Source: a virus | Taxonomy: Duplodnaviria > Heunggongvirae > Uroviricota > Caudoviricetes | IMG/VR virus record: IMGVR_UViG_2562617057_000009 | Location: 1-50,378 of that record | Length of the DNA stretch: 50,378 nt | Direction: 5' to 3' (one strand) | In this document: one piece after another, positions 8,719-24,900 of the stretch | How the letters are laid out: every line of letters begins with the position of its first letter | How positions within the stretch are numbered: the first letter of the stretch is position 1 | Notes under the pieces: model-generated | What the model was told of the DNA's origin: nothing | The model's input: the letters and a program-made list of their open reading frames with translations, nothing else | The model's database searches: none | Program-made: the position numbers and the translations under genes

Positions 8719-9432
8719 ATGGCAGTGAACACCGCAATTTTTAACGACAAAGTATCCATGACCAGCGTTGAAATCGCAGAGTTGGTGGGTAAACGTCATG
8801 ACAATGTGAAACGCACTATTGAAACATTAGCCAAAGGTGGCGTTGTCCGGTCTCCTCAAATTGAGGTTTCCGAAAGAATCAATAACTTAGGTTTTAAAGT
8901 TCAATATGAGCATTACCTGTTTGAAGGAGAGCAAGGTAAGCGCGACAGTATCATTGTCGTCGCACAGCTCTGTCCTGAATTTACTGCTCGCCTGGTAGAT
9001 CGCTGGCGCGAACTGGAAGAACAGATCCGTAAGCCAATGAGCGAAATCGAAATGGTTGCCGCGATGGCTCTTGAAGCAGTTCGTCAGCAAAAACGCCTCG
9101 ACAAGATGGAAGAAAAAGTCAGCCATGTTGCCGAAACAGTTGAGCAAATCAAAAAGGGTACCATTCGTGAGGGCTATGCCGGATATCGCCAGCTGAAAGC
9201 AAAAACCGGTATGTCAGATGCGAAATGTCGCAATCTGGTGAACGCATATCAGATCCCTACCGATACCCATGAATTTATGACGCCGGATGGATTGTTATCT
9301 CGTCGCGCGATTGTTGCTGTGGAACCGTTTATGGCTGCTTTTTATCGGGTTATGGAGGAAGCAGAACCGCGAGGGACTCGCTGGTATCACCCGAAAATGG
9401 GGTTATTTCAGGTTATTGGTTGGCAGAAATAA
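8719..9432 (+). CDS. Rha-family phage regulatory protein / antirepressor
   Basis: N-terminal Rha-like motif (SVEIAELVGKRHDNVKR); AAGGAG before the ATG at 8719; C-terminal domain shared with 2738-3487. Confidence 0.7.
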   Translation: MAVNTAIFNDKVSMTSVEIAELVGKRHDNVKRTIETLAKGGVVRSPQIEVSERINNLGFKVQYEHYLFEGEQGKRDSIIVVAQLCPEFTARLVDRWRELEEQIRKPMSEIEMVAAMALEAVRQQKRLDKMEEKVSHVAETVEQIKKGTIREGYAGYRQLKAKTGMSDAKCRNLVNAYQIPTDTHEFMTPDGLLSRRAIVAVEPFMAAFYRVMEEAEPRGTRWYHPKMGLFQVIGWQK

Positions 9433-9484: not shown

Positions 9485-10309
9485 GTGAAAAACAATATCA
9501 AAGTTTTCGATTTTAAATCAAGCACTGGTGAATTGTTGTCATCAGTTCGTAGTGTGGTCATTGATTCAACACCATGGTTTTTTGCCGTGGATATATGTAA
9601 CGCGCTGGGGCTGACAAATACTGCTATCTCCCTTCAGTCCATCGATGATGAAGATAAAACCGAATATAAGGATTACTTAGGTTCGGGACGTAAGCCTTTG
9701 CTGGTCAATGAATCCGGGCTCTATGCGCTGATTATCAAAAGTCGAAAAAAACAGGCAAGACGTTTTAAACGGTGGATTACATCGGAGGTAATTCCCTCAA
9801 TTCGTAAAACGGGGAATTACTGTCTTACCACAATGGCATCCCTACCAGATTTTAGCGATCCGGCTGCTGCTGCCCGTGCCTGGGCGGACGAATATGAGGC
9901 TAAAAACAGAGCAATTAGTTACGTTCATCGTCAGGCCCAATACATCGAACATCTGGAAAATTTATTCCAGCCTGGCATGACACCGGTTCAGTTCTGCAAG
10001 CAACTTAATGGAGTAAATGTTCAGCGCATCACAGCATTTCTGGAGGCTCACAACTGGCTTTATGACGAGCGTCCTGAATCGCGAAGCCCCGCATGGCGTG
10101 TAAAGGCATATGCCCGAGATCTGTATCTGACCGAACGTCACCACTATATCGATTCAGGTTATGAAGAAGGGTTTTATTCGTACACACCAGTTCTTCTCCA
10201 GAAAGGGGCGGTCTGGATTTATCGCCAGTATCTTAGAGGTGCATTACCCATGAAGAGAAACTGGAATGGCGAATTTACTCACGATAAAGAACTGGCGGGT
10301 GCTGCATGA
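9485..10309 (+). CDS. Bro-N / KilAC-type antirepressor
   Basis: Bro-N-like N-terminus (WFFAVDICNALGLTN) and antirepressor-like C-terminal half; GTG start after GGAGA. Confidence 0.7.
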   Translation: MKNNIKVFDFKSSTGELLSSVRSVVIDSTPWFFAVDICNALGLTNTAISLQSIDDEDKTEYKDYLGSGRKPLLVNESGLYALIIKSRKKQARRFKRWITSEVIPSIRKTGNYCLTTMASLPDFSDPAAAARAWADEYEAKNRAISYVHRQAQYIEHLENLFQPGMTPVQFCKQLNGVNVQRITAFLEAHNWLYDERPESRSPAWRVKAYARDLYLTERHHYIDSGYEEGFYSYTPVLLQKGAVWIYRQYLRGALPMKRNWNGEFTHDKELAGAA

Positions 10310-10965
10310 TTGTTCTCCAAGATATTGATTCTGCAATTTCGGGACGTTACACTGTCTCTGCCCCTTATAAAGCGGGGGCCGGGATTGGAACCCCGGAATT
10401 GATCGAGGCGATATACGACGCGCCAGCGTCTTTTTTATCGTCCGCGCTCACGCACGCCAGAATTATGGTGGGCTGGGCAGGGGAGCCGAAAGGCTCGCCG
10501 GTTTCCTTGATCGCCGGTAGTTCCAACCCTGTTCAGTCCGCCACCAGCGAGCTTGGAACCTCCGGTGGTGGAAGTTTTTCACCGATCAAGGAGGCTGCCA
10601 TCATGGCTACGATCCCAGTTTCCCCATTCCTCAAAATCGAAGTCGTCAACGGCAAGGCCGTTATTTTCTCTTTGCATGTAGCCTGCCATTTCAAGCGCAT
10701 GCACCAGAACATCGTCGACAAAATCGAGTATCTGAACTGCTCGCGCGAATTTTTTACCCGCAATTTCATACCGGGTACTTACCACATCTATGACGACTCT
10801 CTGCGTGGTTATTACATCACCCTTGATGGTCTGATGCTGCTTCAGCTTGGGTTAAGTCTGCGCACAATGCGGTACTACGAGAGTTGCATTGAAGCGTTCC
10901 ATGAGGCTGAAACCGTCCAGGTGCATTCCGCTTTCCGTCGTCATCAACGGGAGGTGCACCTATGA
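10306..10965 (+). CDS. module 1: Rha-like domain protein; the 5' ~300 nt of the ORF is a structured leader (alternative start ATG 10603 after AAGGAGG gives a 120-aa protein)
   Basis: C-terminal 120 aa are Rha-like; ORF start overlaps the upstream stop (ATGA). Confidence 0.55.
   Translation: MIVLQDIDSAISGRYTVSAPYKAGAGIGTPELIEAIYDAPASFLSSALTHARIMVGWAGEPKGSPVSLIAGSSNPVQSATSELGTSGGGSFSPIKEAAIMATIPVSPFLKIEVVNGKAVIFSLHVACHFKRMHQNIVDKIEYLNCSREFFTRNFIPGTYHIYDDSLRGYYITLDGLMLLQLGLSLRTMRYYESCIEAFHEAETVQVHSAFRRHQREVHL
10356..10602 (+). ncRNA. candidate c4/ImmI-like antisense regulatory element, copy 1
   Basis: Hairpin gcccc/ggggc (10360-10379), hairpin plus U-tract 10417-10436, GAAA-tetraloop hairpin 10480-10499, loop CCTTGATCG complementary to the SD region CGATCAAGG (10583-10591), GTTCCAA complementary to TTGGAAC at 10385 and 10553. 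Confidence 0.5.
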
Positions 10966-11621
10966 TCCGCTACCTGAATATTGATTCTGCAATTTCGGGA
11001 CGTTACACTGTCTCCGCACCTTATAAAGCGGGTGCCGGGATTTGCACCCCGGAATTGTCAACGGCGATATACGACGCGCCAGCGTCTTTTTTATCGTCCG
11101 CGCTCACGCACGCCAGAATTATGGTGGGCTGGGCAGGGGAGCCGAAAGGCTCGCCGGTCTCCGTTGACGCCGGTAGTGCAAACCCTGTTCAGTCCGCCAC
11201 CAGCGAGATTTGCACCTCCGGTGGTGGAAGTTTTCCACAGTCAACGGAGGCTGCCATCATGGCTACAGTCCCAACCCACTCATTCCTCAAAATTGAGACC
11301 GTCAACGGCAAGGCCGTTATTTTCTCTTTGCATGTGGCCTGCCACTTTAAGCGCATGCACCAGAACATCGTCGACAAAATCGAGTATCTGAACTGCTCGC
11401 GCGAATTTTTTACCCGCAATTTCATACCGGGTACTTACCACATCTATGACGACTCTCTGCGTGGTTATTACATCACCCTTGATGGTCTGATGCTGCTTCA
11501 GCTTGGGTTAAGTCTGCGCACAATGCGGTACTACGAGAGTTGCATTGAAGCGTTCCATGAGGCTGAAACCGTCCAGGTGCATTCCGCTTTCCGTCGTCAT
11601 CAACGGGAGGTGCACCTATGA
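10962..11621 (+). CDS. module 2: Rha-like domain protein (alternative start ATG 11259)
   Basis: Paralog of module 1; GGGAGGTG precedes the ATG, which overlaps the upstream stop. Confidence 0.55.
   Translation: MIRYLNIDSAISGRYTVSAPYKAGAGICTPELSTAIYDAPASFLSSALTHARIMVGWAGEPKGSPVSVDAGSANPVQSATSEICTSGGGSFPQSTEAAIMATVPTHSFLKIETVNGKAVIFSLHVACHFKRMHQNIVDKIEYLNCSREFFTRNFIPGTYHIYDDSLRGYYITLDGLMLLQLGLSLRTMRYYESCIEAFHEAETVQVHSAFRRHQREVHL
11012..11258 (+). ncRNA. candidate c4/ImmI-like antisense regulatory element, copy 2 (different specificity)
   Basis: Same architecture with compensatory changes: gcacc/ggtgc, TTTGCAC/GTGCAAA, CCGTTGACG versus GTCAACGG at the SD. Confidence 0.5.
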
Positions 11622-12478
11622 TCCGCTACCTGAATATTGATTCTGCAATTCCGGGACGTTACACTGTCTCTGCACCTTATAAAGCGGGTGCCGGGATTGG
11701 CGTCCTGAAATTCAATATAGAGCATAACCGCGCTCATGCGGTTTTTTCGTGTCATGAGCATTGCTACGCCCAAATTATGGTGGGGCGTGCAGGGGCATCG
11801 CAAGATGCGCCGGGTTCTATGTTGACCGGTTACGCCAACCCTGTACGTCTCACCACCTCTGTGATTGGCGTCCCATGTGGTGAGTTCTTTGAATTCAACA
11901 TAGGGGCTGTCACCATGACTACTCTCCCAACCCTCTCTCAACCTGAAATTGCCATCGTTGATGGTCAGGCTGTTACTTCATCCCTGGCTGTTGCCAACTT
12001 CTTCTCTAAACGTCATGACGATGTTCTGAAAAAGATCCGCATTTTGGATTGTTCTCCAGAGTTTTGTGCCCGCAATTTTGCGGAGACATCAATTTTGGTA
12101 CGCCAGCCCAACGGCGGTACTCGCAAACTTCCCTGCTACCAAATCACCCGCGACGGCTTCGCCTTCCTTGCTATGGGCTTCACTGGTAAACGTGCCGCCC
12201 GGTTCAAAGAGGCATACATCAATGCCTTTAACCAGATGGAGAGGAGCTTATCAGGAGCTGGTGCGGCTGACATGTCATCTGTCGCACAAAACGCCAGAGG
12301 CGTATACCTGCATTTGCGTGAAATCCATCAAATCTGGACAAGCCAGCTTTACCCAATGCTTAAGGCCGTTGAATCTCCGCTGGCTGGCAAACTGTACGAC
12401 CGTGTAGGTGATGCTGTTTTTGGTGCTGCACTTGTTGATTCCAGGCTGAATGGTTCTGACAAGGAGGTGCGCCCATGA
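11618..12478 (+). CDS. module 3: full Rha-family regulatory protein (alternative start ATG 11915)
   Basis: Rha-like motif (VTSSLAVANFFSKRHDDVLKKIR); diverged leader of the same design. Confidence 0.6.
   Translation: MIRYLNIDSAIPGRYTVSAPYKAGAGIGVLKFNIEHNRAHAVFSCHEHCYAQIMVGRAGASQDAPGSMLTGYANPVRLTTSVIGVPCGEFFEFNIGAVTMTTLPTLSQPEIAIVDGQAVTSSLAVANFFSKRHDDVLKKIRILDCSPEFCARNFAETSILVRQPNGGTRKLPCYQITRDGFAFLAMGFTGKRAARFKEAYINAFNQMERSLSGAGAADMSSVAQNARGVYLHLREIHQIWTSQLYPMLKAVESPLAGKLYDRVGDAVFGAALVDSRLNGSDKEVRP
11667..11914 (+). ncRNA. candidate c4/ImmI-like antisense regulatory element, copy 3 (third specificity)
   Basis: Terminator-like hairpin aaccgc/gcggtt plus U-run at 11726-11749, GCAA-tetraloop hairpin, TTGGCGT/ACGCCAA pairing, loop CTATGTTGA complementary to TCAACATAG next to the SD. 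Confidence 0.45.
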
Positions 12479-12708
12479 TCCGCCACATCGTTAATTTCCT
12501 GTATCACCGATACAACCATTGCCCCCGTGTGGGGCAGTGGTTCACCACCAGCAACGGCTACGTTCTGCGGGTTTGCCTGGTCAGTACCGAAAGCCAGAAG
12601 GTTGTCTGCCAGGTTCAGGGACGTACTCATACCCTGAGTTATCCGCTGGTGGCGTTTCAGTCCGGAAAAATGTTTAAACGCCTGGGAGGTGGCTATGCGT
12701 CCGTCTGA
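12475..12708 (+). CDS. hypothetical 77-aa protein in the cII-equivalent position
   Basis: AAGGAGGTG before the ATG, which overlaps the upstream stop. Confidence 0.4.
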   Translation: MIRHIVNFLYHRYNHCPRVGQWFTTSNGYVLRVCLVSTESQKVVCQVQGRTHTLSYPLVAFQSGKMFKRLGGGYASV

Positions 12709-17001: not shown

Positions 17002-17078
17002 GGCCCTTTAGCTCAGTTGGTCAGAGCGAGCGACTCATAATCGCCAGGTCGCTGGTTCAAGTCCAGCAAGGGCCACCA
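17002..17078 (+). tRNA. ileZ: tRNA-Ile2-like (anticodon CAU, ileX/ileZ type)
   Basis: Cloverleaf with anticodon loop CTCATAA and 3' CCA; close to E. coli ileX as recalled. Confidence 0.75.
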
Positions 17079-17079
17079 A

Positions 17080-17156
17080 CCACCACTAGCTCATCCGGAT
17101 AGAGCATCAACCTTCTAAGTTGACGGTGCGAGGTTCGAGTCCTCGGTGGTGGGCCA
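17080..17156 (+). tRNA. argN: tRNA-Arg (anticodon UCU)
   Basis: Perfect 7-bp acceptor stem ccaccac/gtggtgg, anticodon loop CTTCTAA, CCA end. Confidence 0.75.
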
Positions 17157-17158
17157 GC

Positions 17159-17234
<76 letters not shown>

Positions 17235-17237
17235 TAT

Positions 17238-17312
<75 letters not shown>

Positions 17313-17824: not shown

Positions 17825-18454
17825 ATGAAGCATGAAGAAATGAATCAGCGATTCAATCACCTGGAAAATGAAATCACTGAGCTTAATAAAAAATTGTCGG
17901 CGTTGGTGAGTTCTGAAGATGAAAACAAACGCCGCGATGAGCATTATGCGGCGATTTACGATTACTGCCACAAAGTCGCTCACGAGACTTTTATGAAGTT
18001 TTTGCAGGAAAAGTTTTTACCGGCCGCATTGTCAGAAAAAGAGGCGGCTTACCTGCGGCCTGAGTACGTCATTACGGTTAACAGTGCCGGAGAGGAAGAG
18101 CATAAAAGTGATTTTATTGCGTCTGCACCGGATAAAGACCAGGAACCCCGTCGGCCTTTCAGGGTTTCCTGTGAAGAGGGTGAGTTCGTCGTTTATGAGA
18201 ACGGAAAACCTGTCCGGGCATCGCATCATCACTGCCTGAAAATTATTAATCTCGCTATCAGATGCCTGAAAGACGAAAACACCAGAGTTATGAAACGCAT
18301 TGGCCGTTGCATGGGGTATTTGCAGGTGGCGGCAGAGATTGAAGCACTTGCCAGTGGTGCAGACATGGATGCTGCGGTGCGGGAGGCTCTTCTTCGTGAT
18401 TTCAATACTCCCCCTTTAAGAAAGAGCCTGATGACTGGATCCAGCCGGGGCTGA
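17825..18454 (+). CDS. hypothetical 209-aa protein inserted between holin and endolysin
   Basis: Acidic, coiled-coil-like N-terminus; no lysis-protein features. Confidence 0.55.
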   Translation: MKHEEMNQRFNHLENEITELNKKLSALVSSEDENKRRDEHYAAIYDYCHKVAHETFMKFLQEKFLPAALSEKEAAYLRPEYVITVNSAGEEEHKSDFIASAPDKDQEPRRPFRVSCEEGEFVVYENGKPVRASHHHCLKIINLAIRCLKDENTRVMKRIGRCMGYLQVAAEIEALASGADMDAAVREALLRDFNTPPLRKSLMTGSSRG

Positions 18455-18519
18455 CTTATCTTAAAAGGCGTATATAAGTTGGCTCGTTATTTGTTGCCGA
18501 TAAATCCTGATAAATATCC

Positions 18520-19053
18520 ATGAGCGCAAAAATCAAATACGGCCTGTCGGCTGCTGTTCTGGCGCTGATTGCCGCAGGCGCGTCTGCTCCCCAGATACTT
18601 GACCAGTTTCTGAACGAAAAAGAGGGTAATCACACAACGGCATACCGTGATGGTTCTGGCATATGGACCATCTGTCGTGGTGCCACAATGGTGGATGGTA
18701 AGCCTGTCATACCGGGAATGAAGCTGTCGAAGGAAAAATGTGACCAGGTTAACGCTATTGAACGTGATAAGGCGCTGGCATGGGTGGAGCGCAATATTAA
18801 AGTACCTCTGACCGAACCACAGAAAGCGGGTATAGCGTCATTTTGTCCCTATAACATTGGCCCCGGTAAGTGTTTTCCGTCGACGTTTTATAAGCGGCTG
18901 AATGCTGGTGATCGTAAAGGTGCATGCGAGGCGATTCGCTGGTGGATAAAAGATGTTGGGCGCGATTGCCGCATACGTTCAAATAACTGCTATGGACAGG
19001 TTATTCGTCGTGACCAGGAAAGCGCATTAGCCTGTTGGGGGATAGATCAATGA
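18520..19053 (+). CDS. R: SAR endolysin (T4-type lysozyme with N-terminal signal-arrest-release domain)
   Basis: Gly/Ala-rich N-terminal membrane segment followed by catalytic E-x8-D-x5-T ([16 protein letters not shown]). Confidence 0.85.
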
Positions 19054-19517
19054 GCAGAGTCACCGCGATTATCTCCGCTCTGGTTATCTGCATCATCGTC
19101 TGCCTGTCATGGGCTGTTAATCATTACCGTGATAACGCCATTACCTACAAAGAGCAGCGCGACAAAAACGCAAGAGAACTGAAGCTGGCGAACGCAACCA
19201 TTACTGACATGCAGCAGCGCCAGCGTTCTGCTGATGCACTCGATGCTAAATACACGAAGGAGTTAGCTGATGCGAAAGCTGAAAATGATGCTCTTCGGCG
19301 CAAGCTTGATAATGGTGGTCGGGTGCTCGTCAAAGGAAAATGCCCTGTGCCATCCTCAGCCGAAACCTCCAGCGCCTCCGGCATGGGCAATGATGCCAGC
19401 GTCGAACTCTCTCCAGTTGCTGGACGAAACGTTCTCGGTATCAGAGACGGAATCATCAGAGACCAGACAGCACTGAGAACGCTTCAGGAATACATCAGAA
19501 CGCAGTGTCTGAATTAA
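19050..19517 (+). CDS. Rz: Rz-like i-spanin
   Basis: N-terminal transmembrane segment then coiled-coil; immediately after the endolysin. Confidence 0.75.
19270..19476 (+). CDS. Rz1: Rz1-like o-spanin lipoprotein embedded in the +1 frame of Rz
   Basis: Lipobox VVGCSS, proline-rich, wholly inside Rz in another frame. Confidence 0.6.
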
Positions 19518-19657: not shown

Positions 19658-19888
19658 ATGGCAACAAGCATCCGTTTAGACGATGATTTCGTCAGTGACG
19701 TAAAGGTTCACGCTGATGCCGCAAGTCGCAGCATACCAAAACAAATTGAGCACTGGGCTAAGATTGGTCGTATAGCTGAAGATAATCCAGATCTGCCATT
19801 CAGTTTTATTAGCGAAGTTCTGCTGTCACAAAGCGAAATCAGACACAACAAGGTAACGCGTTATGTCAGAAGAACAGACAGGTCGTGA
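19658..19888 (+). CDS. type II antitoxin (ParD-like)
   Basis: 76-aa ORF after AGAGAGG; overlaps the start of the downstream RelE/ParE-like gene. Confidence 0.55.
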   Translation: MATSIRLDDDFVSDVKVHADAASRSIPKQIEHWAKIGRIAEDNPDLPFSFISEVLLSQSEIRHNKVTRYVRRTDRS

Positions 19889-20192
19889 AATTGATGTTTA
19901 TCAGAGTCGGCGTTTCGAAAAGTCTCTGAGTAAACTCCCGGAAGCGCAACTGAAAGTTGTGGAAGATGAGATCGACAGAATAATTGACAATCCTCTGTTG
20001 GGAACGCAAAAGAAAGGAGACCTCAGTTTTCTTCGTGTGCATAAATTTCAGCTGAATAATCAACAGGTGCTTCTGGGTTACAGCTGGCTTGACGATAAAC
20101 TTGAGCTCTACCTCCTTAGCATCGGTCCACATGAAAATTTTTATACCGATCAGAAAAAACACCGAAAAGCTGATTTAAAACTCATCGGTTAG
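19863..20192 (+). CDS. RelE/ParE-family toxin
   Basis: 109-aa basic protein in a two-gene overlapping arrangement typical of type II TA pairs. Confidence 0.55.
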   Translation: MSEEQTGREIDVYQSRRFEKSLSKLPEAQLKVVEDEIDRIIDNPLLGTQKKGDLSFLRVHKFQLNNQQVLLGYSWLDDKLELYLLSIGPHENFYTDQKKHRKADLKLIG

Positions 20193-20211
20193 TCCTGACG
20201 TCATGCATACC

Positions 20212-23568: not shown

Positions 23569-24900
23569 TATGATGGTGGCAGTCACTATCGCACTGCAGC
23601 CACTGGTCAGGGTATTGCCGGTGACGGCTGTAGAATGGGCCGATCAAAATTATTACCTGCCTAAAGAATCGTCATACGGTGAGGGGGAATGGAAAACGCT
23701 GCCGTTTCAGGTCGCCATCATGAACTGCATGGGCAATGACGAGATTCGTACAGTTAACCTGATTAAATCTGCCCGTGTTGGTTATACAAAGATGTTGCTG
23801 GGGGTGGTCGGGTATTTTATTGAGCATAAATCCCGCAACAGCCTGCTTTTTCAGCCCACTGACTCGGCTGCTGAAGATTTTATGAAGTCTCACGTGGAGT
23901 CGACGATCCGGGACGTACCCTGTCTGAAAGCCCTTTCTCCATGGCTGGGACGTAAACATCGTGACAATACCCTCACACTGAAACGCTTTTCCTCCGGCGT
24001 GGGATTCTGGTGTCTGGGCGGTGCAGCTGCCAAAAACTACCGTGAAAAATCTGTGGATGTGGTCTGCTATGACGAACTCTCCTCGTTTGAACCGGATGTG
24101 GAAAAAGAAGGTTCGCCGACGCTGCTTGGCGATAAACGTATCGAAGGTTCGGTATGGCCTAAATCCATACGCGGCTCAACGCCAAAAATTAAAGGCTCCT
24201 GTCAGATTGAAAAAGCTGCGAATGAATCTGCGCATTTCATGCGGTTTTATGTCCCTTGCCCTCATTGCGGGGAGGAGCAGTATCTGAAGTTTGGCGATGA
24301 TGCGACGTCGTTTGGCCTGAAATGGGAGAAGGGTAAACCGGAAACGGTGTATTACCTGTGTGAACATAATGGCTGCGTGATCCGTCAGTCTGAACTTGAT
24401 CAGACCGGGGGGCGCTGGATTTGTGACAATACCGGGATGTGGACGCGTGACGGCCTGACATTTTACAGCGTCGGTGATGAGGAGATACCCCCGCCACGTT
24501 CTGTCACTTTCCACATCTGGACGGCGTACAGCCCGTTCACTACCTGGGCGCAGATTGTTTATGACTGGCTGGATGCACTGAAGGATCCTAACGGCGTCAA
24601 GACGTTTGTAAACACCACACTGGGGGAGACCTGGGAAGAGGCCGTGGGCGAAAAACTCGATCACCAGGTGCTGATGGATAAGGTTGTGCATTACCCGGCG
24701 GCGGTGCCTGTCCGGGTGGTTTACCTGACTGCTGGTATTGACTCGCAGCGAAACCGTTTTGAGATGTATGTCTGGGGATGGGCTCCGGGAGAGGAAGCCT
24801 TTCTGGTGGATAAAATCATCATTATGGGACGACCTGATGAGGAAGAGACGCTGTTACGTGTGGATGCGGCGATCAACAAAAAATACCGCCATGCAGACGG
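23540..24900 (+). pseudogene. A: terminase large subunit (lambda gpA-like), 3'-truncated by IS1
   Basis: Collinear with recalled lambda A for ~450 aa (TAVEWADQNYYLPKES...); reading frame runs into the IS1 left end at 24901. Confidence 0.8.

Follow-up and report, generated by a model that had tools for sequence, protein, structure and literature searches.

Differently Keyed C4/isrK-Type RNA Modules in Tandem in the Early-Right Operon of a Lambdoid Prophage

Introduction

Why would a single prophage carry, side by side, three copies of a short regulatory leader that share one architecture and yet differ in the very sequences through which they pair? This question is raised by positions 10306–12478 (plus strand) of IMGVR_UViG_2562617057_000009, an IMG/VR virus record that was analyzed over its whole length of 50,378 nucleotides (nt; herein referred to as the window). 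This interval holds three consecutive modules of 656, 656, and 857 bp, which stay exactly in register for the first ~300 nt; they belong to the early-right operon of a defective lambdoid prophage and lie directly 5′ of its replication genes. An earlier note, made by reading the sequence alone, had described the interval as a tandem array of c4/ImmI-like antisense-RNA modules with different specificities, each in front of a Rha-like gene and each following the logic of phages P1 and P7, in which the c4 RNA controls icd-ant. The presence of three differently keyed c4/immI-type modules is borne out by Rfam models, by an order and spacing of elements like those of P1, and by coordinated differences of the kind that separate P1 from P7.

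A single module of this type is an already described device (P1/P7 c4, the Gifsy-1 IsrK-orf45/STnc1160-AnrP system, and the P4 immunity region), whereas the tandem, differently keyed arrangement is apparently new; no description of such arrays was found in the literature searched, which covered few subscription journals. We consider it probable that the array consists of three tandem RNA-immunity cassettes of the P4/P1/Gifsy-1 type acting as differently keyed locks, with a bypass like that provided by the P4 eta gene.

Results and Discussion

Three isrK-Type and Three C4 RNAs in the Array

Every module runs in the same order, from the upstream sites a1 and b1 through a terminator and a C4 RNA bearing the loops b′ and a′ to the downstream sites a2 and b2, the last of which lies on the Shine-Dalgarno sequence (SD) of a Rha-like open reading frame (ORF). 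In a scan of the window, the Rfam C4 model (RF01695) matched three times over model positions 1–87 of 87 (E 3e-15 to 3e-14), so that the covariance-model check proposed in the earlier note was passed three times, at 80–85 bits against a gathering threshold of 45 bits. The isrK model (RF01394; gathering threshold 50 bits) gave three full-length matches as well (E about 4–7e-11), each ~25 nt upstream of a C4 match. Both a c4 and a c4-a1b1 motif were listed by Weinberg et al. (2010); the latter (RF03163) had no match in the window's Rfam scan and, among the sequences scanned, was reported only for Gifsy-1. The C4 fold comprises a basal stem that encloses a tetraloop hairpin and a large-loop hairpin (b′) and is followed by single-stranded a′, and minimum free energy (MFE) folds match the model. 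Its ends, GGUGGG at the 5′ side and GCCACC at the 3′ side, are the same as those of the annotated 77-nt c4 of P1.

In module 1 (this and all other array features lie on the plus strand), the short IsrK/seqA-type RNA occupies 10360–10436 (Rfam isrK, 62.8 bits) and consists of a 5′ hairpin, a second hairpin with a1 in its loop (10385–10391), b1 (10400–10408), and a terminator (10417–10436). The C4 antisense RNA follows at 10461–10548 (84.6 bits, full length; predicted mature form about 10467–10545), with its b′ loop at 10502–10513 (UUUCCUUGAUCG) and a′ at 10520–10526 (GUUCCAA), and its MFE fold (−49 kcal/mol) agrees with the Rfam model. The target region (10553–10596) contains a2 (10553–10559) and b2 (10583–10592), which overlaps the SD AAGGAGG of a nested ORF of 120 amino acids (aa) with a divergent Rha domain (10603–10965), predicted to be gated by this C4 RNA.

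Module 2 repeats this layout, with an IsrK-type RNA at 11016–11092 (61.8 bits; a1 11041–11047, UUUGCAC; b1 11056–11064; terminator 11073–11092), a C4 RNA at 11117–11204 (80.1 bits; b′ loop 11158–11169, UCUCCGUUGACG; a′ 11176–11182, GUGCAAA), a target region at 11209–11252 (a2 11209–11215; b2 11239–11248, overlapping the SD), and a nested 120-aa ORF (11259–11621) that is nearly identical to that of module 1 beyond the first ~30 codons. The corresponding elements of module 3 are an IsrK-type RNA at 11672–11748 (61.9 bits; a1 11697–11703, UUGGCGU; b1 11712–11720; terminator 11726–11748), a C4 RNA at 11773–11860 (80.1 bits; b′ loop 11814–11825, GUUCUAUGUUGA; a′ 11832–11838, ACGCCAA), a target region at 11865–11908 (a2 11865–11871; b2 11895–11904, just 5′ of the ATG), and a nested 187-aa ORF of the Rha family (11915–12478).

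The sites fall where the earlier note had placed them: its motif A, our a1 and a2, starts at 10385/10553, 11041/11209, and 11697/11865; its motif B, our a′, at 10520, 11176, and 11832; the loop sequence within b′ at 10505, 11161, and 11817; and the complement that overlaps the SD at 10583, 11240, and 11895. The paired changes that it described are likewise present, both in the first hairpin (gcccc/ggggc to gcacc/ggtgc) and in the tetraloop stem (gagcc-GAAA-ggctc to gcatc-GCAA-gatgc). A scan found the intrinsic terminators as GACGCGCCAGCGTC plus T6 at 10417 and 11073 and as AACCGCGCTCATGCGGTT plus T at 11726, and the shape is thus kept in module 3 with a different sequence, as had been stated.

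Upstream of each short RNA, the motif TTGATT-17 nt-TACACT is invariant in all three modules (10325–10353, 10981–11009, and 11637–11665; inferred starts G10360, 11016, and 11672) and constitutes a candidate internal promoter. It is preferred because it aligns with the Gifsy-1 promoter PisrK (TTGACA..TATATT) and because the start site that it implies reproduces the published Gifsy-1 numbering. An alternative promoter, TCGTCA-17-TATGAT, was called by a promoter scan at two module junctions and was set aside in favor of the Gifsy-1-aligned motif. A further terminator-like hairpin (AACGGCAAGGCCGTT then ATTTTCTCTT) is found 45 nt into the nested ORF of module 1 (10648–10672) and of module 2 (11304–11328), but not in module 3; such hairpins could cause termination when the ORF is untranslated.

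Covariation and Predicted Specificity

Leaders were found with an nhmmer profile in 86 IMG/VR contigs that had been chosen by a shared conserved promoter motif, and 35 distinct leaders were aligned together with P1 (36 in total) on a structure written from module 1. Across this alignment, 96.8% of the cells belonging to the C4 structure and to the a′–a2 and b′–b2 pairings are paired, compared with 83% when columns are shuffled and 36–44% when the partners are slid by 1–3 columns. The b′–b2 pairing is kept in 97.8% of cells, and at 7 of its 10 pairs both partners change, with up to four pair types. The a′–a2 pairing is kept in 94%; the C4 basal stem (99.8% paired, 5 pairs changed on both sides) and tetraloop stem (98.9%, 4 of 5 pairs changed on both sides) are maintained by the same kind of double change. 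The upstream pairings are jointly 96.2% paired (b′–b1 98.1%, a′–a1 93.6%; slid controls 31–50%). The earlier proposal that the b′ sequence is complementary both to its upstream partner and to the SD region is borne out, with the amendment that pairing to b1 includes G·U wobble in modules 1 and 3; the b′–b2 matches of modules 1 and 2 are perfect.

Of the 656 positions, 50 distinguish module 1 from module 2, and within the leader these differences lie almost entirely in a1, b1, b′, a′, a2, and b2; what remains is one compensatory hairpin pair, and the promoter, terminator, and C4 stems are unchanged. The pattern resembles that between P1 and P7, which differ by coordinated 2 + 2-base changes (two per a site and two per b site) at the same six sites. 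P1 and P7 reportedly form the classical heteroimmune pair, known from the work of Citron and Schuster in 1990.

The loop–target duplexes computed for the window are stable to −22 to −27 kcal/mol in cognate combinations and to −12 to −15 kcal/mol in non-cognate ones, a gap of about 10 kcal/mol, and a gap between cognate and non-cognate energies also holds over 40 distinct modules. Because modules 1–3 differ mutually at least as much as P1 and P7 do, it is a reasonable prediction that the three would not cross-react. The sampled leaders contain at least 9 b types and at least 6 a types in at least 18 combinations. The two kinds of type assort combinatorially though the six sites interleave. Some of the types are common to other systems: lambdoid modules also carry the P4 a-type GUGAGAA/UUCUCAC, and module 3 has the Gifsy-1 type UUGGCGU/ACGCCAA.

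Recurrence of Tandem Arrays

Arrays of more than one module account for 20 of the 87 sampled (15 with two modules and 5 with three, usually at a period of 656 bp), and none of the 12 distinct multi-module arrays has a repeated (b′, a′) pair. The tandem junction, queried as the end of a short nested ORF joined to the promoter of the next module and counted at ≥80% coverage, was found in at least 85 of 5,426 complete Escherichia coli genomes, and some part of the array was matched in 1,467 complete E. coli genomes (27%). An assembly artefact is ruled out by the occurrence of the identical array in two complete genomes as well as in the IMG/VR contig, and by the other two- and three-module arrays.

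Module 2, module 3, and the first gene after the array are each bounded by a junction of ~23 nt (GGAGGTGCnCCnATGATCCGC, comprising an SD and an ATG that overlaps the preceding stop) at 10946–10970, 11602–11626, and 12459–12483; the last of these (GGAGGTGCgCCcATGATCCGC) closes the array on its 3′ side and begins the next ORF (12475–12708). Gain and loss of modules probably take place at this joint. The accumulation of differently keyed modules could provide independent control, broadened immunity, or sensing of other elements, or it could be a by-product of recombination at the GGAGGTGCnCCnATGATCCGC junction.

An Open Frame through the Leaders and the Genes behind Them

The leaders are not free of ORFs; one frame is open through each whole module and runs in frame into the nested ORF, with nested ATGs at 10603, 11259, and 11915. 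The resulting long ORFs comprise 219 aa in module 1 (10306–10965), 219 aa in module 2 (10962–11621), and 286 aa in module 3 (11618–12478). The first two are eta-like and are annotated by the Prokaryotic Genome Annotation Pipeline (PGAP) as 'ash family protein', and the third is annotated as 'Rha family phage regulatory protein'. Stop/start overlaps of the form ATGA, each with an SD, occur at 10306, 10962, 11618, and 12475. At the first of these, the ATG of module 1 overlaps the stop of the upstream BRO-N gene, and at the second, the ATG of module 2 overlaps the module 1 stop and has a strong SD (GGGAGGTG) upstream. None of the 35 distinct lambdoid-type leaders has a stop in this frame, whereas the other two frames have stops at 12 and 15 distinct columns. 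Because all 35 leaders are open while the other frames carry stops at 27 columns, the alignment argues that the long frame is held open by selection.

The matches to the Pfam family Phage_ASH (PF10554) coincide with the translated isrK and C4 leader (10348–10624, 11004–11280, and 11660–11944; aa 15–106 of the module 1 long ORF and aa 15–109 of that of module 3). The 'Ash domain of unknown function' is a protein shadow, or an eta-like dual coding, of two RNA genes.

Downstream of the leader, the description of all three genes as Rha-like requires a distinction. Module 3 matches Phage_pRha (PF09669; threshold 29.9 bits) with 93.3 bits (aa 120–209 of the long ORF), whereas for the nested ORFs of modules 1 and 2 the scores are 27.3 and 27.2 bits (E ~6e-6; aa 122–202 of the module 1 long ORF), just under that threshold, and these ORFs also fall under the TIGR02681 cutoff. 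Homologues of the nested ORFs of modules 1 and 2 were found in E. coli only and have lengths of 118–121 aa. The module 3 protein shares 85.6% identity with a protein of an Stx1a phage (Stx, Shiga toxin) annotated as 'phage antirepressor Ant', and comparison with P1 Ant1 (E 0.63) and with Gifsy-1 AnrP revealed no similarity to either. The cargo was thus rejected as a homologue of proven antirepressors and, because it resembles neither P1 Ant1 nor AnrP, 'antirepressor' is on these sequence comparisons an unproven annotation label only. Evidently, the leader serves as a portable front end for the regulation of varied 'Bro-network' cargo.

Relationship to P4, P1, and Gifsy-1

Sequence comparison makes the P4 immunity region, and not P1, the closest architecture. 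The isrK model matches P4 seqA and the C4 model matches P4 CI, as in the modules of the window, and P4 has the same order (a1–b1, C4, and a2–b2 on the SD) with replication genes downstream. P4 shares an identical start region (GGAGGCUGCCAUCAUGGCUAC) with modules 1 and 2, and in P4 as in module 1, 54 nt separate C4 from the nested ATG. A 214-aa eta ORF spans the promoter, seqA, and CI of P4, and the in-frame nested kil (65 aa) is preceded by a2 and has b2 on its SD; this nesting, with a long ORF that begins 5′ of the promoter and an in-frame nested ORF, is found in all three modules. Residues 9–102 of the module 1 long ORF align to residues 32–152 of P4 Eta (E 5e-10), up to '...EAAIMAT'. The P4 sites lie at 8365–8692 of its record. 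P4 differs in having one cassette where three differently keyed ones stand in tandem here, in the nested gene (65-aa kil vs. a 120- or 187-aa Rha-domain protein), and in the distance between the starts of seqA and CI (185 nt vs. 101 nt here). P4 is, moreover, a satellite that relies on RNA immunity alone, whereas the window is a lambdoid prophage with a protein repressor. Forti et al., writing in J Bacteriol in 1999, reportedly gave an account of P4 eta that agrees with the more recent one. In the latter, eta contains the constitutive P4 promoter, full-length Eta arises solely from a regulated promoter farther upstream by coupling to the preceding gene, and eta translation prevents termination; Williams and colleagues also stated there that the isrK and C4 Rfam models detect relatives of seqA and CI (PMC10111431).

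The P1 record lists promoters, a1, b1, c4, a2, b2, icd, and ant1 in the same order as the modules, with a terminator-like hairpin between b1 and c4, and the spacings of P1 and module 1 are close (a1–b1, 14 vs. 14 nt; a2–b2, 29 vs. 30 nt; b2–ATG, 18 vs. 20 nt). The analogy to P1 and P7 drawn earlier is therefore sound for the system of a and b sites and for its spacing, but it does not extend to the operon, in that there is no icd and P4 is closer in architecture. P1 carries icd-ant1 as cargo, whereas the modules have no icd-like ORF and their cargo starts directly at b2, so that the array is not an operon of the P1 type. P1 also has a single copy, with a C1 operator on the c4 promoter, and none of its reading frames passes through c4 without a stop.

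In Gifsy-1, the isrK, c4-a1b1, and C4 models all match in front of anrP, and the promoter position, start site, and terminator align with those of the modules. The a-type of Gifsy-1 is identical to that of module 3, and its orf45 AUG corresponds to an AUG at the 5′ edge of C4 (AAUUAUGGUGGG) that is conserved in all three modules (10465, 11121, and 11777) and is in frame with the nested ORF. The Gifsy-1 cassette differs from the array in being a single copy downstream of Q (vs. the early-right operon), in having orf45 as a separate frame that ends in AUGA (in the array, it is fused with the ORF of the cargo), in encoding an AnrP that is unrelated to the module 3 protein, and in having a shorter b′ loop.

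The function of isrK, that is, activation of the downstream gene in trans, is known only from Gifsy-1. Hershko-Shalev et al. reported that the 77-nt IsrK partly reads through its terminator, that the ~80-nt STnc1160 is processed from the read-through transcript, and that anrP translation increases ~140-fold when IsrK is provided in trans; they also made compensatory mutants (PMC4825925). When the published numbering is laid on the Gifsy-1 sequence (34050–34360, minus strand), every quoted base matches, with G28 and G31 in a1 and C159 and C162 in a′. The compensatory pairs G28–C162 and G31–C159 consequently map exactly onto a1 and a′, and the interaction verified there is that between these two sites. 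The C4 family is not mentioned in that paper (PMC4825925).

The same leader occurs in other settings. APSE phages have an isrK/C4 pair in front of a BRO-N gene (PMC7313666), and the 'Rha/Ash domain' genes in the replication regions of Eru6, Eru7, and Eru9 Stx phages represent these very cassettes; direct matches include the Eru7 reference phage (LC567818) and many other Stx phages. The Stx-phage literature treats these genes as encoding proteins of unknown function, and the RNAs go unmentioned (PMC8951638).

A Model for the Array

By analogy with P1, P4, and Gifsy-1, we infer an internal promoter, RNA processing, repression, a decoy effect, and an eta-like bypass. In a lysogen, the early promoter PR would be off, and the internal promoter of each module, probably constitutive, would yield mostly the ~77-nt IsrK-type a1/b1 RNA ending at the terminator. 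Transcripts that read through would carry the ~80-nt C4, probably excised by RNase P as in P1 and P4, and its 12-nt b′ loop and 7-nt single-stranded a′ would pair with b2 and a2, hide the nested SD, and block translation of the Rha-like ORF; the untranslated RNA downstream would probably terminate by polarity. An excess of the short a1b1 RNA would titrate C4 and open the lock, as has been shown for IsrK. Because the a and b sequences differ between modules, each C4 is expected to act on its own module only, which would place three orthogonal locks in series. The long ORF, like P4 eta, would probably be translated only on transcripts from PR, and upon induction such transcripts, translated through the ATGA-coupled long ORFs, would override the terminators and the C4 RNAs and reach the replication genes. 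Homology and covariation give strong support to the first of these two layers, the C4 lock with derepression by the short RNA. The second, a bypass through the long ORFs driven by PR, we infer from the example of P4, from the overlapping starts and stops, and from the conservation of the open frame.

Several observations weigh against three independent locks with a bypass. The candidate promoter TTGATT-17-TACACT has only 8 of 12 consensus matches, and the promoter scan made no call there. Modules 1 and 2 give only a weak Rha match, and some arrays share one loop between modules (b′ in L002 and a′ in L012). In P1, stops interrupt the frame through c4; an ORF through C4, and with it eta-like translation, is therefore ruled out as a universal feature of C4 systems, and the eta-like layer is confined to the P4/lambdoid branch. 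For Gifsy-1, Hershko-Shalev et al. favor alternative cis structures together with orf45 coupling rather than a trans-acting C4 repressor, and extra STnc1160 gave no relief of IsrK toxicity in their hands (PMC4825925). Finally, because the prophage is defective, truncated, and riddled with insertion sequences (IS), the array may be idle or inactive in this strain.

Of the alternatives, we regard as possible, though short of likely, that transcription control in the style of P4 is the main job of the array. The cassettes would then silence their own constitutive promoters and any read-through, which would keep the replication genes off in the lysogen, and the Rha-like ORFs would matter mainly as a translated stretch whose occupancy decides termination. 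The position of the array directly upstream of the O-like, DnaC-like, and DnaB genes is consistent with this, and the second three-module array (L002) is likewise placed; so is the homology to P4, in which CI, acting with seqA and seqC, keeps the replication gene downstream from being expressed and translation of kil and eta prevents termination. Two further observations point the same way: the nested ORFs of modules 1 and 2 contain terminator-like hairpins, and the cargo is dissimilar to proven antirepressors. However, the same leader stands before unrelated cargo far from replication genes (Gifsy-1 anrP, P1 icd-ant, and APSE BRO-N), and b2 covers the SD, which argues for translational control first. 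A more doubtful account of the array is the published IsrK model, by which the long transcript would be inactive through a cis fold of a1/b1 with the C4 region, the short RNA would be a trans activator, translation would begin at the AUG at the 5′ edge of C4, and processed C4 would be a by-product. Its strength lies in the mutational and structure-probing data from Gifsy-1 (PMC4825925), in the presence of the orf45 AUG in all three modules in frame with the nested ORF, and in a1–a′ and b1–b′ pairings that covary as strongly as the downstream ones. Nevertheless, a2 and b2 covary equally with the loops and sit on the SD, and a model confined to cis folding needs neither. The a′ mutants C159U and C162U were strongly derepressed, and repression was not restored in the double mutants, which fits a requirement of a′ for pairing with a2 as well. 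According to the P1 record and its literature, moreover, c4 is a trans-acting repressor, and the heteroimmunity that goes with it was reportedly described by Citron and Schuster in 1990.

It appears unlikely that module 3 alone works, with modules 1 and 2 as duplicates in decay within a prophage that is itself dead. The nested ORFs of modules 1 and 2 do fall below the Pfam and NCBIfam thresholds for Rha, their family is confined to close E. coli relatives, and the prophage contains two IS911 copies, an IS1, and truncated genes; yet the RNA elements of modules 1 and 2 score at least as high as those of module 3, their b′–b2 matches are perfect, and the differences between them are coordinated over six sites, while the 120-aa length of the ORF is conserved in homologues and modules with the short ORF recur in the arrays of at least 85 genomes. 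Still less credible, to the point of being very improbable, is that the modules are plain paralogous protein-coding 'Ash/Rha' genes whose RNA features are incidental. Uninterrupted ORFs of 219, 219, and 286 aa annotated by PGAP, and the match of PF10554 to the leaders, speak for such a view, but it is contradicted by six covariance-model matches above curated thresholds, by dozens of compensatory double changes that keep the RNA pairings, by intrinsic terminators inside the supposed genes, and by the experimental proof of homologous RNAs in P1, P4, and Gifsy-1. Most likely, coding and RNA functions coexist, as in P4 eta.

A broader and speculative extension, to which we attach a low probability, is that the stacked cassettes form a multi-channel device for RNA sensing and immunity, with C4/IsrK pairs keyed to an alphabet common to P4-like, Gifsy-type, and lambdoid elements. 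If this were true, a three-channel prophage could silence the cognate cargo of three kinds of incoming or co-resident elements and could equally be unlocked by the decoy RNAs of those elements; with translationally chained ORFs, any opened lock would drive expression across the modules downstream of it and on into the replication genes, making the array an OR gate for prophage awakening that is wired by RNA cross-talk among mobile elements.

Under the favored reading of the array as three differently keyed locks, genes now named 'ash family protein' or 'Rha/Ash domain protein', including types present in outbreak strains, are RNA-immunity cassettes and should be re-annotated. One and the same device has been described under different terms in the literatures on P1 c4, on P4 CI, seqA, and eta, and on Salmonella IsrK. 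The family also provides, on a scaffold that hardly varies, naturally occurring RNA pairs of predicted orthogonality, in which the evolution of specificity can be studied over three sites at once and from which parts for synthetic riboregulators could be drawn, and the tandem arrays permit tests of the independence of specificities and of RNA cross-talk between prophages and satellites.

Genomic Setting

The window matches a prophage integrated beside mlrA, and the 2.3-kb array region, used as a query, is 100% identical in E. coli O121 strain 201805972. The gene order begins with an integrase and an excisionase, followed by one IS911 copy, and continues with a CI-type repressor identified by its domain matches (helix-turn-helix plus S24 peptidase; 7145–7834, minus strand), cro, a Rha-family gene (8725–9432), and a BRO-N gene (9485–10309) directly upstream of the array. 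On its 3′ side, the array is followed by a 77-aa ORF (12475–12708) and, from 12689, by the replication genes (an O-like gene, a DnaC-like ATPase, and DnaB), and then by ninH, Q, four tRNAs, the lysis genes with the second IS911 inside, and a terminase cut by IS1. The Rha-family gene at 8725–9432 and the BRO-N gene at 9485–10309 are without a C4/isrK leader; with them, five Bro-network genes stand in a row in the early-right operon.

The prophage is defective and is interrupted by the two IS911 copies and the IS1. By the annotation of the matching genome, the three elements lie at ~5300–6468, ~17890–19058, and ~23692–24389; the insertions hit a fragment of a beta-clamp-domain gene, the lysis region, and the large terminase, and the RNA array itself is intact. 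The same annotation places a toxin–antitoxin pair of the ParD/ParE type at ~19661–20195, in the late region. The four tRNA genes are consecutive (17002–17309) downstream of the Q antiterminator gene and are named Ile, Arg, Thr, and Gly in RefSeq. Outside the array, the Rfam scan also returned a full-length match to CssrB, a Shigella small RNA (230 bits; 30624–30803), and a match to IS009 RNA (129 bits; 31560–31763).

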